Part shown: positions 56,422-64,000 of the stretch, one piece after another
Layout: the number at the start of each line of letters is the position of its first letter
Position numbering within the stretch: the stretch's first letter is position 1
From: an uncultured Bacteroidia bacterium
Lineage (GTDB): Bacteria > Bacteroidota > Bacteroidia > Bacteroidales > F082
Assembly (NCBI GenBank): GCA_902801625.1
Contig: CADCJI010000006.1
Coordinates: forward strand, 11,304-75,303
Reading direction: 5' to 3'
DNA: 64,000 nucleotides
Made by a program: the position numbers and the translations under genes
The notes under the pieces: generated by a model
Seen by the model: only the letters and a program-made list of their open reading frames with translations
Database searches by the model: none
What the model was told of the DNA's origin: nothing

Positions 56422-58164
56422 ATGCCATTTTCTGACTTTAAAACCCTGAAGCGTTTGTTGAAATCAGACTTGAGTGCTCTACCCTTGATAAAAGTGGCTC
56501 TGCTGGGTGATACAGCAACGCAGTTTCTTGCCACAGCCATCCGAGGGACCGGTGTGGAGCGAGGCTATCATATTGACCTCTACGAGGCAGAATACGACCA
56601 AGTGGAAAGACAACTGCTTGACCCGACGAGTGAATTCTACGAGTTCAATGCAGACTTCATTATATTGTTCCAAAGTACGCACAAACTTGGCGAAAACCAC
56701 GCGATGCTCAGCTCGGAACAACAGACCACCTTGGCTGAGGACAGACTCAACTTCGTGGCCTCAATATGTTCCAATCCTGCCCTCGAAGGCAAAAAGATCA
56801 TCTATTTCAACTATCCTGAGATAGACGATGCCGTGTTTGGCAGCTATGCCAACCACGTGCCGCAATCGCTGACATGGCAAGTAAGGCGGCTGAATTGCGG
56901 ACTGATGGATTTGACGCAGCAGTACCCGAACCTCTTCATTTGCGATCTTGCAGCGCTGCAAAACAAGTTGGGACGCGATGCCATGTTTGCCGCCAATGTT
57001 TACACCAGCACAGAGATGGTGTTGAGCATGGATGTATTGCCCTATGTTGCGAGCCGAGTGATGGACATCATTTGTGCCGTAAAGGGACAATTCAAGAAAT
57101 GCCTCATTTTGGACCTTGACAACACGGTATGGGGTGGCGTGATTGGTGATGACGGACTTGAAGGCATCCAGCTAGGTCATGGACTAGGCATTGGCAAGGC
57201 CTTCACTGAGTTCCAGATGTGGGTCAAGAAGCTCAAGCAGCGTGGCATTATCATTTGCGTAGCCTCGAAGAACAATGAAGAGACTGCCAAGGAACCCTTT
57301 GAGAAGCATCCTGACATGGTGCTCAAGCTGGACGACATTGCTGTGTTCCAAGCCAATTGGGAGACCAAAGTCGACAATATACGTACCATTCAAAGCATTT
57401 TGAACATCAGCTTTGATAGCATGGTGTTCTTGGATGACAACCCCTTCGAACGGAATATTGTACGCGAAAACATCAAAGGCATCACCGTGCCTGAGTTGCC
57501 CGAAGACCCTGCGGATTACTTGGAATACCTTTATGGGCTGAATCTATTTGAAACCGCCAGCTACAGTTCTGCCGACAAGGACCGTACGAAGCAATATCAA
57601 GTGGAGGCTCAACGTGTGTCGCTGAGCAAGACCTTCACCAATGAAGCAGACTTCCTCAAATCATTGGATATGGTTTCTGTCGTAAGCGGTTTCACCAAAT
57701 TCAATACGCCCCGTGTCGCACAACTTACCCAAAGGAGCAACCAGTTTAATTTGCGTACTGTCCGATACACTGATGCCGACATCGAATCATTCGCATCGGA
57801 TACAGAAGTGATTGACCTGAGCTTCACCTTACAGGACAAGTTTGGCGACAATGGCTTGATCGCTGTCATCATCATGAAGCCGAAGGACAAAGAAACACTC
57901 TTTGTGGATACTTGGTTGATGAGCTGTAGGGTATTGAAACGTGGTGTTGAGAATTTCACTTTGAACACCATGGTGGAGATTGCCAAGTCAAAGGGATACA
58001 AGCGAATCATAGGAGAATACCTGCCAACGCCTAAGAATGGCATGGTGGCATTGCATTATCCAGAACTTGGTTTCAAACCCATAGAGGGCAGCCCAACTGC
58101 CCAATGGGTTCTCGATTTGGAGAACTACCAGCCCCGCGAGTGTTTTATTGTTGCTAATGAATAA
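56422..58164 (+). CDS. FkbH-like HAD-IIIC family protein
   Basis: HAD motif I LILDLDNTVWGGVIGDDGLEGIQLG, VASKNNEETA and FLDDNPFER, plus a C-terminal GNAT-like region; 580 aa. Confidence 0.75.
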   Translation: MPFSDFKTLKRLLKSDLSALPLIKVALLGDTATQFLATAIRGTGVERGYHIDLYEAEYDQVERQLLDPTSEFYEFNADFIILFQSTHKLGENHAMLSSEQQTTLAEDRLNFVASICSNPALEGKKIIYFNYPEIDDAVFGSYANHVPQSLTWQVRRLNCGLMDLTQQYPNLFICDLAALQNKLGRDAMFAANVYTSTEMVLSMDVLPYVASRVMDIICAVKGQFKKCLILDLDNTVWGGVIGDDGLEGIQLGHGLGIGKAFTEFQMWVKKLKQRGIIICVASKNNEETAKEPFEKHPDMVLKLDDIAVFQANWETKVDNIRTIQSILNISFDSMVFLDDNPFERNIVRENIKGITVPELPEDPADYLEYLYGLNLFETASYSSADKDRTKQYQVEAQRVSLSKTFTNEADFLKSLDMVSVVSGFTKFNTPRVAQLTQRSNQFNLRTVRYTDADIESFASDTEVIDLSFTLQDKFGDNGLIAVIIMKPKDKETLFVDTWLMSCRVLKRGVENFTLNTMVEIAKSKGYKRIIGEYLPTPKNGMVALHYPELGFKPIEGSPTAQWVLDLENYQPRECFIVANE

Positions 58165-58167
58165 GTT

Positions 58168-58590
58168 ATGACAATTGCCGAATTAGCAGAACAGACAGGG
58201 AAAATAGAACACACTTATCAGGTGACTCCTGAAGTGTACCATGCGTTCCAGTTATGCAGTGGCGACTTCAACCCGTTACACACCGACATGGCTTTTGCCC
58301 AAAGCAAAGGCTTTAACGATTGTGTGATGTACGGCAACATCTTGAATGCCTTTATCAGCCACTTTGTAGGGATGCTACTTCCGACAAAGGAGGTGATGAT
58401 TCAGAGCCAAGACATCAGTTTCCACAAGCCTGTGTTCATGAACGACAAAGTCGCCTTAGAGGCCACAGTGGATACTGTTTCCGAGGCTGTCGGCATCATT
58501 GAATATAAATTTAAATTCAGGCGCATAAGTGATGGCGTCAAGCCCGAGCTTGTCGCCAAAGGCCATGTGCAGATAGGATTATTAAAATGA
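58168..58590 (+). CDS. MaoC-like hotdog-fold dehydratase
   Basis: SGDFNPLHTD motif; 140 aa. Confidence 0.75.
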   Translation: MTIAELAEQTGKIEHTYQVTPEVYHAFQLCSGDFNPLHTDMAFAQSKGFNDCVMYGNILNAFISHFVGMLLPTKEVMIQSQDISFHKPVFMNDKVALEATVDTVSEAVGIIEYKFKFRRISDGVKPELVAKGHVQIGLLK

Positions 58591-62132: not shown

Positions 62133-63068
62133 ATGAAAAGGTTTATCAAACTATTTTGTTTTTTCTGGCTGTTTCTCATTTTGGCTATTGCTTGCATTCG
62201 GATAGCATGGATTCTAGTGACACCGCGAATCATGGAAAGGAACGTCCTTGATAAGGATATACATACCATTGTTTTGGGTGGTTCGGTTGGGATGGCCGAT
62301 TGGAATGATAGCATTATCCATGGTTCGAAGAATCTCTGTGCTTCGGCAATGACTTTTGGTGGAGCACTGAACAATCTGAAATGGGCCACTGAATATAACG
62401 AAAATAAACCTGACACGGTTATACTCGCAGCAGGACTAGTGTCGGTGGCTTATTTTTTTGACGATGTAGATGTACCCGAGGCGCTGTTAAAAAGAGATGA
62501 AGAAAAAAGAAATATCTTAAACTATTCCGTTTTCTTCAATAACTATAAACAGCATATCGAATATTGGGAATACATACTTGTTTCTTTTCCCTACAAGAAC
62601 CTTGAGGCATACAAGGGCGTTGAAGGTAATTTTTCCACTGAAGATCATATTGAAATAAATCATCCACTGGCCTTTAATCAAATTAATACAGCAATTGAGC
62701 GGGCTCACGAATATGACAAACAAGGTAATATGTCTGAAGAATATCTTAAGACATATTTCACATATCAGCTCGATAATCTTCATAAAATAAAGGAGTATTG
62801 TGGTGCCCATCAGCAGACGCTTATTATCTTGAACACTCCCATGTACAAAATCTTAGATATGGCGAGTGACAAGGGTTATCGGCAATTGATATGTTCGGAG
62901 TTAGGAGATAGTACGCTTGTAGCAGATTACAGTCATTTCAAAGTACCTGATTCAACCTATTTTAGAGACCCTGAACATTTAAACACAAAAGGGGCTCAAT
63001 ATTTTGGGGAACATATTTCAAGAGAAGGTTTGCAATTGCAATATGCAATAGACTATTGTATGAATTAG
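62133..63068 (+). CDS. Membrane-anchored DltD/SGNH-like protein (putative extracytoplasmic acyl-transfer partner of the MBOAT)
   Basis: N-terminal TM anchor MKRFIKLFCFFWLFLILAIACI. HTIVLGGSVG is block-I-like and DPEHLNTKGAQYF is a block-V-like DxxH. This is a weak by-eye call. Confidence 0.4.
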   Translation: MKRFIKLFCFFWLFLILAIACIRIAWILVTPRIMERNVLDKDIHTIVLGGSVGMADWNDSIIHGSKNLCASAMTFGGALNNLKWATEYNENKPDTVILAAGLVSVAYFFDDVDVPEALLKRDEEKRNILNYSVFFNNYKQHIEYWEYILVSFPYKNLEAYKGVEGNFSTEDHIEINHPLAFNQINTAIERAHEYDKQGNMSEEYLKTYFTYQLDNLHKIKEYCGAHQQTLIILNTPMYKILDMASDKGYRQLICSELGDSTLVADYSHFKVPDSTYFRDPEHLNTKGAQYFGEHISREGLQLQYAIDYCMN

Positions 63069-63123
63069 CTTTGGGTCATATTGGTTGTTTTCTCTATTTT
63101 TGCTGACCCAAATGTAGACATAT

Positions 63124-64000
63124 ATGCTCTTCAACTCCATCCAATTCGCGATATTTCTTCCGATACTCTTCCTGCTCTATTGGTTCGTGTTCAACCGCTT
63201 CATCAGCAAGTCGAAGTGGCAGTTGCATTTGCAGAACGCCTTTGTTGTGGTGGCAAGTTATGTGTTTTACGGCTGGTGGGATTGGCGTTTTTTGCTGTTG
63301 ATTGCTTTTACTTCTTTCTGTTCATGGGGAAGCGGAATACTCATCGGAAATGCCGATTCGAAGAAAAAAGCCAAAACCTGGATGTGGCTGAATATCGTGC
63401 TGAATCTTGGCATTTTGGCATTATTCAAGTACTACGACTTCTTCGTCACCGAGTTTGCCGAACTATTCAACATCTCCACTGATGGCTTGTTGCTGAAAGT
63501 GATACTCCCAGTTGGCATCTCGTTCTACACTTTCCAAGCCATATCCTACTCCATCGATGTCTGCCGGGGCAAGATTGAGCCCACTAAGGACATTGTGGCC
63601 CTCTTCGCATTCATTTCATTCTTCCCCCAACTGGTTGCGGACCCTATCGAGCGCGCAACGAACCTCTTGCCCCAATTCTTGAAAAAGCGCGAATTCAACT
63701 ACGACAACGCCGACGACGGAATGCGACAGATACTTTGGGGTCTGTTCAAGAAGATTTCTGTTCAAGAAGATTATGGTGGCCGACAACTGCGCGGTGTATG
63801 TCGACCAAGTATTCTCGACCTATACGGAGCAAAGTGGAAGCACTTTGCTCCTTGCAGCCATATTCTTTACTTTCCAGATTTACGGTGACTTCTCCGGCTA
63901 TTCTGACATTGCCATTGGTACGGCCAAGTTGTTTGGCATAAAACTGATGCGCAATTTCAACGTACCTTATTTTAGTAGGGACATAGCCGAATTTTGGCGC
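63124..64000 (+). pseudogene. Second MBOAT-family O-acyltransferase (AlgI-like), frame broken by a 16-bp tandem duplication; 3' end beyond the window
   Basis: Frame 1 gives MLFNSIQFAIFLPILFLLYW..LPVGISFYTFQAISYSID..RQILWGLFKKI. After 63772 the family sequence continues in the +1 frame: MVADNCAVYVDQVF..FQIYGDFSGYSDIAIGTAKLFGIKLMRNFNVPYFSRDIAEFWR. Confidence 0.75.
63741..63772. repeat. Perfect 16-bp tandem duplication (tctgttcaagaagatt x2)
   Basis: Read directly: 63741-63756 equals 63757-63772. Deleting one copy restores the MBOAT reading frame. Confidence 0.95.

Follow-up and report, generated by a model that had tools for sequence, protein, structure and literature searches.

A putative carrier-protein-dependent MBOAT-SGNH O-acylation locus with an FkbH-type loader in a rumen Bacteroidales genome

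Among the pathways built on a membrane-bound O-acyltransferase (MBOAT) together with an SGNH protein, a 2025 mechanistic paper treats Dlt as the sole one fed by a carrier protein, the others working without a carrier (PMC12148441). The acyl-tyrosine intermediate is borne in PatA and in DltX by the motif FxYxxF (PMC12148441). The characterised enzymes of the FkbH family use 1,3-bisphosphoglycerate and form the glyceryl thioester of an acyl carrier protein (ACP), glyceryl-S-ACP (PMC7489565), and FkbH loading is given in the BiGMeC domain table as 1,3-bisphosphoglycerate to D-lactate-ACP (PMC7901079). The locus described here appears to bring these two kinds of system together. It is found at positions 56422 to 64000 of a stretch of 64,000 nucleotides from an uncultured Bacteroidales bacterium (contig CADCJI010000006.1), which is called the window below. 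It is reasonably probable, in our judgement, that this locus encodes a carrier-protein-dependent MBOAT-SGNH system for O-acylation of the Gram-negative envelope in rumen Bacteroidales and Prevotellaceae, with a donor derived from a glycolytic C3 unit and not from an adenylated acid.

The locus consists of eight open reading frames (ORFs), whose lengths are given in amino acids (aa), and the second MBOAT gene contains a short duplication:

56422-58164, + strand: FkbH-family protein and likely loader, 580 aa, with FkbH_N, a HAD-IIIC phosphatase domain and a C-terminal acyl-transfer domain
58168-58590, + strand: MaoC-type single hot-dog (R)-hydratase/dehydratase, 140 aa (PF01575, 1.4e-14)
58587-59411, + strand: N (PP-domain) subunit of a transketolase-like thiamine diphosphate (ThDP) enzyme, 274 aa (Transketolase_N PF00456, 2e-34)
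59413-60378, + strand: C (Pyr and TKC) subunit of the same transketolase-like ThDP enzyme, 321 aa (Transket_pyr PF02779 and Transketolase_C PF02780)
60407-60649, + strand: discrete ACP, 80 aa (PP-binding PF00550, 2.7e-9), with Ser39 in DSL
60653-62122, + strand: MBOAT acyltransferase, 489 aa (PF03062, 4e-15), with C-terminal FVYFQF
62133-63068, + strand: N-terminally transmembrane-anchored protein of predicted SGNH fold, 311 aa, assigned from a structure model and invariant residues, with no Pfam or NCBIfam match
63124-64000, + strand: second MBOAT, a pseudogene continuing beyond the window end, with a frameshift and W339 changed to TAG
63741-63772, + strand: perfect 16-bp tandem duplication (two copies of TCTGTTCAAGAAGATT) that frameshifts the second MBOAT

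The seven intergenic junctions are, in order, +3, -4, +1, +28, +3, +10 and +55 nt. The cluster may be co-transcribed, as argued from these short gaps; a scan for sigma-70 promoters and terminators, which does not cover Bacteroidota promoters, gave nothing above chance. An independently assembled metagenome contig (L001 in our numbering of loci) is identical in sequence to the window and extends beyond its end, where the cluster continues with a second SGNH-like gene. Family scans found no AMP-binding or DltA-like adenylating gene in the cluster, in this continuation or in the relatives examined. An earlier note on this DNA, made from the sequence alone, had placed these eight ORFs in this region and in the same order and had described them as tightly packed and devoid of a DltA-like ligase; the ORF listing and the family scans bear it out in all of this. 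Its assignments of the FkbH protein, the MaoC hot-dog protein, the 80-aa carrier with its DSL serine and the MBOAT also held when checked on the models TIGR01686, PF01575, PF00550 and PF03062, respectively.

Relatives of this FkbH protein occur in at least 481 stretches in GTDB species-representative genomes. The best 80 of these, together with further contigs, gave the 85 FkbH loci of the present survey, most of which come from Bacteroidota. L008-L011 (94-99% identity) belong to the same uncultured rumen Bacteroidales/Prevotellaceae lineage as the window. The ACP gene is followed directly by an MBOAT gene in 66 of the 85 loci, and in 54 of these 66 the gene after the MBOAT codes for a homologue of the 62133-63068 protein; in the remaining ones that were inspected, the MBOAT is followed by a different transmembrane-anchored protein with GDS and DxxH blocks. 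In most of the loci FkbH has a discrete ACP no more than about 4 kb downstream, the exceptions including contigs that end near FkbH. In 13 loci the ACP, MBOAT and SGNH genes are inverted as one block relative to FkbH. The survey, which the earlier note had called for, thus finds a unit of FkbH, ACP, MBOAT and SGNH-like protein conserved in most loci.

Two features of the survey are recorded separately. In three loci (L033, L088 and L089) an unannotated protein of 751 aa takes the place of the SGNH gene after the MBOAT, and a DUF1574-like gene is found upstream of FkbH. Seven loci (L036, L037, L039, L070, L071, L073 and L077) come from bins of metagenome-assembled genomes (MAGs) that bear Firmicutes names (Coprococcus, Oscillibacter, Faecalibacillus and others). 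Their FkbH proteins share 67-83% identity with the Bacteroidales protein; mis-binning of the contigs is the probable cause, the alternative being horizontal transfer.

In the first MBOAT of the window the WHG histidine is located within the region matched by PF03062. The C-terminal FxYxxF motif is present in all 85 full-length MBOATs of the related loci (85/85), and the window protein ends in ...AEFVYFQF. No separate DltX-like microprotein is encoded between the ACP and the MBOAT, where the gap of 3 nt is too short to hold a small ORF; the motif is fused to the MBOAT's own C-terminus. A neighbour-joining tree rooted on an unlinked MBOAT, with 63 unique ACP-adjacent MBOATs, places the ACP-adjacent proteins in one clade, with the tandem paralogues that are not next to an ACP outside it, and 19 alignment columns discriminate the two groups. 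Three apparent exceptions within the clade are also linked to FkbH or ACP. A tree rooted at its midpoint was uninformative. The first MBOAT of the window is inside the ACP-linked clade and the second is outside it. The conserved core, the separate clade and the FxYxxF motif in every protein support the central idea of the earlier note, in which FkbH loads a glycolysis-derived acyl group on the carrier for an MBOAT and its SGNH partner and no adenylating ligase takes part.

The FkbH protein belongs clearly to its family, with 289.8 bits on PF21211 (1.3e-86, cutoff 27) and 289.7 bits on TIGR01686 (cutoff 146.65). It also matches TIGR01681 of the HAD-IIIC group, and its N-terminal half matches the structure of BF1531 from B. 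fragilis (PDB code 3slr, 1.9e-171). The residues D231-L-D233-N-T235 (the DxDxT motif), S282-K283, D338-D339 and Cys502 (in MSCRV) are at least 97% conserved among 82 homologues. Cys502 is presumably the catalytic acyl-transfer cysteine, as in OzmB. The ACP gives 39.7 bits on generic ACP models and only 17 bits on the DltC model NF003464, the cutoff of which is 68. The gene content between FkbH and ACP varies by locus, and because of this FkbH is likely the constant loader of the carrier protein, with the other genes coding for tailoring steps. The following arrangements of this interval were found:

no gene: many loci
132-aa VOC protein similar to methylmalonyl-CoA epimerase: about 15 loci besides L016 (10061-10462)
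MaoC and a short-chain dehydrogenase/reductase, taken as a ketoreductase (KR): 12 loci, including cultured Prevotella strains
MaoC, both transketolase-like subunits and a FabG-like KR: L005, L033, L065 and L088-L091
MaoC and both transketolase-like subunits but no KR: the window lineage alone
two methyltransferases, one of them TylF-like: L084, 8794-10372 (Flavobacteriales MAG)

Judged from their families, all these enzymes are of types that act on thioester-bound short acyl groups. The VOC and methyltransferase inserts would imply epimerised or O-methylated glyceryl groups, respectively. In the window MaoC the catalytic Asp/His hydratase motif GDFNPLH is intact in the translation. The succession of MaoC and KR mirrors the route by which the loading modules of FkbH-containing polyketide synthases (PKS) are thought to yield lactyl-ACP, as with BryA. 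In three loci of the variant with both the transketolase-like enzyme and KR, a gene for a phosphopantetheinyl transferase is located about 3 kb downstream (L088, 15446-16003; L089, 10932-11489; L033, 9405-9962), assigned by PF01648 in L088 and L089.

The solved structures nearest to the transketolase-like enzyme are those of the split transketolase of Carboxydothermus hydrogenoformans (N subunit to PDB code 6yak, 3.5e-57; C subunit to 6yaj, 4e-56). The N subunit retains the ThDP/Mg motif GDGE...N and the histidines of GAHFGG, KGHAA, VAHAK and WHH; the motif and the histidines, like the activating-Glu motif IAEQN, align with the C. hydrogenoformans and human transketolases. The histidine that contacts the donor C1-hydroxyl in transketolases, which is Phe in 1-deoxy-D-xylulose 5-phosphate synthase, is also kept. 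In the C subunit ADLSKSTK is changed to ADMSVAAS, THAG..GEDGASHQ to LNSG..QYFGNTHY and IRLGRSG to IRLTGGS. In the alignment, the canonical sugar-phosphate-binding Arg, Ser, His and Arg and the Asp of GEDG in the Pyr domain are matched by Ala, Ala, Asn, Gly and Phe. In canonical transketolases the Ser, His, Asp and Arg at the exchanged positions presumably bind the sugar phosphate. The main replaced signature is common to at least 114 of the 120 closest C-subunit homologues, most of which also have the YIRL(T/S)G change. FkbH, MaoC, KR and ACP flank the transketolase-like genes in all four of the further contexts sampled (4/4), and likewise in L005, L033 and L065. In the subfamily as a whole (P0188-P0307) hydrophobic or aromatic residues replace GEDG, His and Arg, and public records label its members simply as transketolase. 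A housekeeping transketolase of the pentose-phosphate pathway was rejected on the basis of this signature and of the strict linkage to FkbH, MaoC and ACP.

The earlier note had proposed that the split transketolase co-loads the carrier by delivering a C2 glycolyl unit, as in the quinocarcin and naphthyridinomycin pathways; by this account the unit would be delivered beside or instead of the FkbH product, and glycolyl would be exported. The position of the two-subunit enzyme next to the ACP and the retained donor-contacting histidine are in agreement with such a role. However, oxidation and transfer of the unit depend, in the quinocarcin/naphthyridinomycin route, on an E2-like acyltransferase that bears a lipoyl group, and family scans of the cluster genes and of the relatives examined gave no lipoyl or 2-oxoacid_dh (E2) domain. 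The transketolase-like genes are missing from most FkbH-ACP-MBOAT loci and never occur without MaoC, which was present at every transketolase-containing locus seen, and the residues for binding a sugar-phosphate donor are replaced. A glycolyl loader of the quinocarcin type was rejected for want of an E2/lipoyl partner, and we hold glycolyl delivery to be very improbable. The enzyme looks like an optional tailoring enzyme when its distribution is considered. The simplest reading, a speculative one, is that it extends the MaoC product on the ACP by a C2 acyl-anion unit, and the subfamily with its remodelled pocket probably acts on ACP-bound substrates.

The protein encoded at 62133-63068 had been described in the earlier note as a transmembrane-anchored DltD/SGNH-like protein. 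The anchor and the SGNH fold agree with the present analysis; DltD family membership was unsupported by Pfam, profile or fold searches and had to be dropped. A scan of the protein against Pfam and NCBIfam, DltD (PF04914) included, gave no match. It has 37 close homologues, and a profile search of 1.84 billion representatives gave 1110 relatives at E<=1e-3, nearly all of about 300 aa. Over 52 diverse members of the family the residues Gly49, Ser51, Asn67, Pro236, Asp279, His282 and Gly287 are invariant, and the Gly-x-Ser block near the N-terminus and the DxxH block near the C-terminus follow the SGNH order. The Pfam scan of these 52 members gave just weak SGNH, DUF1574 and GDSL matches and no DltD. 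A first structure model, made from 15 close homologues, had a predicted local distance difference test score (pLDDT) of 55 and was discarded. The AlphaFold model from the 52-sequence alignment has a pLDDT of 95 and a predicted template modelling score (pTM) of 0.93, with an N-terminal helix at residues 2-33. Its top fold matches in the PDB belong to SGNH esterases, Bacteroidales GDSL-like lipases among them (3p94, 4hf7, 4iyj, 4ppy, TesA and Axe2); DltD, PatB and AlgX are absent from the top 50 fold matches. The family profile gave nothing meaningful against PDB sequences (best E 0.62). In the contexts sampled, distant members of the family are found directly after an MBOAT even where FkbH is missing. 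Because of the fold model, the invariant residues and this adjacency, the protein is read as the transmembrane-anchored SGNH-fold partner of the MBOAT and presumed to be an extracytoplasmic acyl transferase. It is functionally analogous to DltD or PatB and not demonstrably a member of the DltD family.

The second MBOAT gene has become a pseudogene in the window strain. Compared with the intact orthologue in L002 (15784-17232), it is disrupted twice, by the frameshift of the 16-bp duplication and by the change of the W339 codon to TAG, which is located just past the window end and corresponds to L001 9183-9185. The identity of the independent contig L001 indicates that the lesion is gene decay or an on/off switch and not an assembly error. 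Thus the MBOAT-like ORF of the earlier note exists and is not intact. Its interpretation overall is retained for the core of FkbH, ACP, MBOAT and SGNH protein and given up for loading by transketolase, DltD membership and an intact second MBOAT. In L002 (8422-18189), and likewise in L003, L004, L009 and L010, a single ACP gene is followed by three to four tandem MBOAT-SGNH pairs, and the window lineage has lost the middle pairs present in these close relatives.

These observations allow us to propose the following series of reactions. As its family membership suggests, FkbH would dephosphorylate a phosphoglycerate-type substrate and pass the glyceryl group through Cys502 to the phosphopantetheine on Ser39 of the ACP. 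By analogy with the loading modules in which FkbH is combined with a dehydratase (DH) and a KR to make lactyl-ACP, MaoC would then strip the 3-hydroxyl, giving enol-pyruvoyl- or pyruvoyl-S-ACP. The third step is speculative and the weakest of the series. In it the transketolase-like enzyme, with its catalytic machinery kept and a hydrophobic pocket, might add a C2 acyl-anion to give a C5 hydroxy-keto acyl-ACP, by 1,2-addition to the pyruvoyl ketone or by a Stetter-like reaction with a 2-hydroxyacryloyl group. ThDP-dependent formation of a C-C bond on an ACP-tethered acyl group is not known for transketolases. A FabG-like KR would reduce the product in relatives; this strain has no such KR. By analogy with Dlt and PatA/PatB, the MBOAT would accept the acyl group on the cytoplasmic side from the ACP and deliver it to the Tyr of FVYFQF on the outer side, and the SGNH protein, with Ser51, Asp279 and His282, would finally esterify a hydroxyl of an envelope polymer.

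A wider proposal is offered tentatively, as possible and short of probable. Bacteroidota and some other gut and rumen bacteria would have a second, so far unrecognised class of carrier-dependent MBOAT-SGNH systems, which makes esters of glycerate-derived hydroxy acids on an envelope polymer. The acyl groups would be glyceryl, lactyl, methylated glyceryl or a keto/hydroxy acyl group of C5, branched or extended. In the window variant, a neofunctionalised transketolase would form the C-C bond on an ACP-tethered pyruvoyl or 2-hydroxyacryloyl group.

Several points weigh against the proposed pathway. It is derived as a whole from genomic comparison and structure prediction, and the acyl group, its hand-off from ACP to MBOAT and the acceptor are all inferred. 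On the DltB model TIGR04091 the first MBOAT gives 163.5 bits against a cutoff of 375 and its non-ACP paralogues give 170-174 bits; all four are alike, and the ACP-linked one has no DltB-specific mark. Sequence methods draw no link from the SGNH partner to DltD, PatB or AlgJ, and the scores of its PDB fold matches are modest (probability 0.99-1.0, with E about 6e-3 and a template modelling score from 0.37, normalised to the query, to 0.54, normalised to the target). In L091 (6481-11369) the order FkbH-TKN-TKC-KR-MaoC-ACP, where TKN and TKC are the transketolase-like subunits, differs from that of the window and does not fit a simple collinear reading; the gene order therefore cannot be read as the order of reactions. 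The FkbH-MaoC-transketolase-KR-ACP cassette also occurs without any MBOAT, in L065 (Hoylesella marshii DSM 16973), L090 and L091. These MBOAT-free cassettes are located in glycan loci with genes for a Wzx flippase, DegT aminotransferases, GNAT, WbqC and AT3 acyltransferases and glycosyltransferases. It follows that the ACP product may be usable by other acyltransferases, and this gene content supports a role of the cassette as a general supplier of acyl groups for surface glycans. Lastly, the neighbourhood of gatDE and methylmalonyl-CoA genes in the window lineage gives no hint of the acceptor.

The MBOAT-free cassettes are the main argument for a different view, in which two separate systems happen to be adjacent. 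The cassette would feed a cytoplasmic N- or O-acyltransferase encoded elsewhere, for acylation of sugar nucleotides, and the MBOAT-SGNH pair would be of the acetyl-CoA-dependent PatA/PatB or AlgI/AlgJ type. The likeness of all the MBOATs on the DltB model and the three further MBOAT-SGNH pairs without their own ACP in close relatives point in the same direction, as does the published view in which Dlt is the exception and the remaining MBOAT/SGNH systems use acyl-CoA (PMC12148441). However, an MBOAT within a few nucleotides of the ACP in 66 loci, the inversion of ACP, MBOAT and SGNH protein as a single block and the distinct clade from which the non-ACP paralogues are excluded would be difficult to explain if the systems were separate. 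In addition, no sugar-nucleotide or N-acyltransferase genes are found at the window locus or in L014. Adjacent but separate systems are therefore considered unlikely.

The nature of the acceptor may be considered from the flanking genes. In the window lineage the locus is found between gatDE and genes for methylmalonyl-CoA epimerase and decarboxylase, and in Prevotella aff. ruminicola between genes judged from their translations as secA and feoB; neither is a glycan biosynthesis locus, and no link to such genes was seen in L014. Such placement would suit an acceptor other than a glycan, that is, a membrane lipid, a lipoprotein or a secreted small molecule, as would the unannotated 751-aa protein directly after the MBOAT in some relatives; MBOATs of other organisms are known to acylate lipids and proteins. 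On the other hand, the same acyl-ACP cassette is found elsewhere in loci of O-antigen or capsule type. The bacterial MBOATs characterised so far that combine a C-terminal FxYxxF with an SGNH partner are all known to act on polymers, namely alginate, cellulose, peptidoglycan or teichoic acid (compare PMC12148441). A non-glycan acceptor thus appears improbable, and transfer to a hydroxyl of an envelope polymer remains the preferred reading.

The literature searched contains no paper pairing FkbH with Bacteroides, none pairing it meaningfully with MBOAT and, for FkbH with capsule or O-antigen, no account of a system of this kind. Because no match was found and PMC12148441 treats Dlt as the only carrier-fed pathway, a Gram-negative MBOAT-SGNH system that depends on a carrier, is loaded by FkbH and has modular tailoring is judged to be new; the MBOAT-SGNH logic itself is known. 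If the proposal is true, carrier feeding of an MBOAT-SGNH pair extends to Gram-negative bacteria, in which FkbH replaces the Dlt loader and the tailoring enzymes are modular. New ester substituents (glyceryl, lactyl and larger hydroxy-keto acyl groups) would be predicted for the envelopes of the Prevotellaceae that abound in rumen and gut, where they could affect recognition by phages, lysozyme or the immune system, and a subfamily of transketolase-like enzymes with a remodelled pocket would be defined. Cultured carriers of such loci exist in Prevotella aff. ruminicola Tc2-24, Prevotella sp. khp7 and tf2-5, and Hoylesella marshii DSM 16973.

Two groups of neighbouring genes are of separate interest. 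Directly upstream of the cluster (53024-56367, + strand) are genes for GatE (379.8 bits on TIGR00134, cutoff 319.55) and GatD (497.3 bits on TIGR02153, cutoff 324), subunits of an archaeal-type Glu-tRNA(Gln) amidotransferase. This pair is unexpected for a Bacteroidales genome, and it is kept at the same position in L002-L004 and L008-L010. At 48889-50933 (- strand) are a mevalonate kinase-like and a diphosphomevalonate decarboxylase-like gene, both below the equivalog cutoffs; they suggest that this Bacteroidales lineage makes isoprenoids by a mevalonate-type route.

It is useful to compare the proposed system with its closest described counterparts. The Dlt system (DltX/A/B/C/D) for D-alanylation of teichoic acids in Firmicutes shares with it a small phosphopantetheinylated carrier encoded beside an MBOAT and a membrane-anchored SGNH protein, the FxYxxF motif, and an expected passage of the acyl group from the carrier thioester to the MBOAT, the Tyr, the SGNH Ser and the polymer hydroxyl. 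The differences are considerable. DltA is an adenylating ligase, while the predicted loader here is an FkbH HAD phosphatase/acyltransferase; the acyl group of Dlt is an amino acid, while a glycerate-derived hydroxy or keto acid is predicted here. The FxYxxF motif is carried in Dlt by the DltX microprotein and is fused to the MBOAT in the window. Moreover, the ACP, MBOAT and SGNH protein of the window are all below the cutoffs of the DltC, DltB and DltD models, and the host is a diderm without teichoic acids.

The O-acetyltransferase pairs PatA/PatB, AlgI/AlgJ/AlgX and WssH/WssI resemble the window in the fused FxYxxF MBOAT followed by a transmembrane-anchored SGNH partner and in the Gram-negative envelope. 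They have no carrier and use acetyl-CoA as donor (PMC12148441), while in the window an ACP, a loader and tailoring enzymes precede the MBOAT, which belongs to a separate clade. The non-ACP MBOAT-SGNH paralogues of the relatives (pairs 2-4) probably belong with these O-acetyltransferase pairs.

The formation of glyceryl-ACP by FkbH/OzmB, on the way to methoxymalonyl-ACP and tetronates, and the FkbH-DH-KR lactyl modules have in common with the window an FkbH protein above the TIGR01686 cutoff with its own discrete ACP. The optional MaoC (DH) and KR also mirror the dehydrate-then-reduce route of those modules to lactyl-ACP. In contrast to the polyketide pathways, no PKS, nonribosomal peptide synthetase or FabH-like consumer is found here; its place is taken by the MBOAT-SGNH pair, or in some relatives by acyltransferases of glycan loci, and the transketolase-like enzyme of the window has no counterpart there. 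The glycolyl-ACP system of the quinocarcin and naphthyridinomycin pathways (QncN/L/M and NapB/D) shares a split transketolase-type ThDP enzyme beside an ACP. It differs in that the window has no lipoyl/E2 acyltransferase, that the phosphate-binding residues are replaced, and that FkbH and MaoC are always alongside.

Decoration of a bacterial surface glycan with a glycerate-derived group has a precedent in C. jejuni: di-O-methylglyceroyl-pseudaminic acid is found on the flagellin glycan, and the locus contains the fkbH-domain gene cj1302 (PMC3068675, PMC7099621). That modification differs from the proposed pathway in being a cytoplasmic N-acylation of a nucleotide sugar without MBOAT-SGNH export. 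It is similar in that a glycerate-derived acyl group, 2,3-di-O-methylglyceroyl, decorates a surface glycan and the locus holds an fkbH-domain gene, and the two methyltransferases of the Flavobacteriales locus L084 may be compared with this methylated group.

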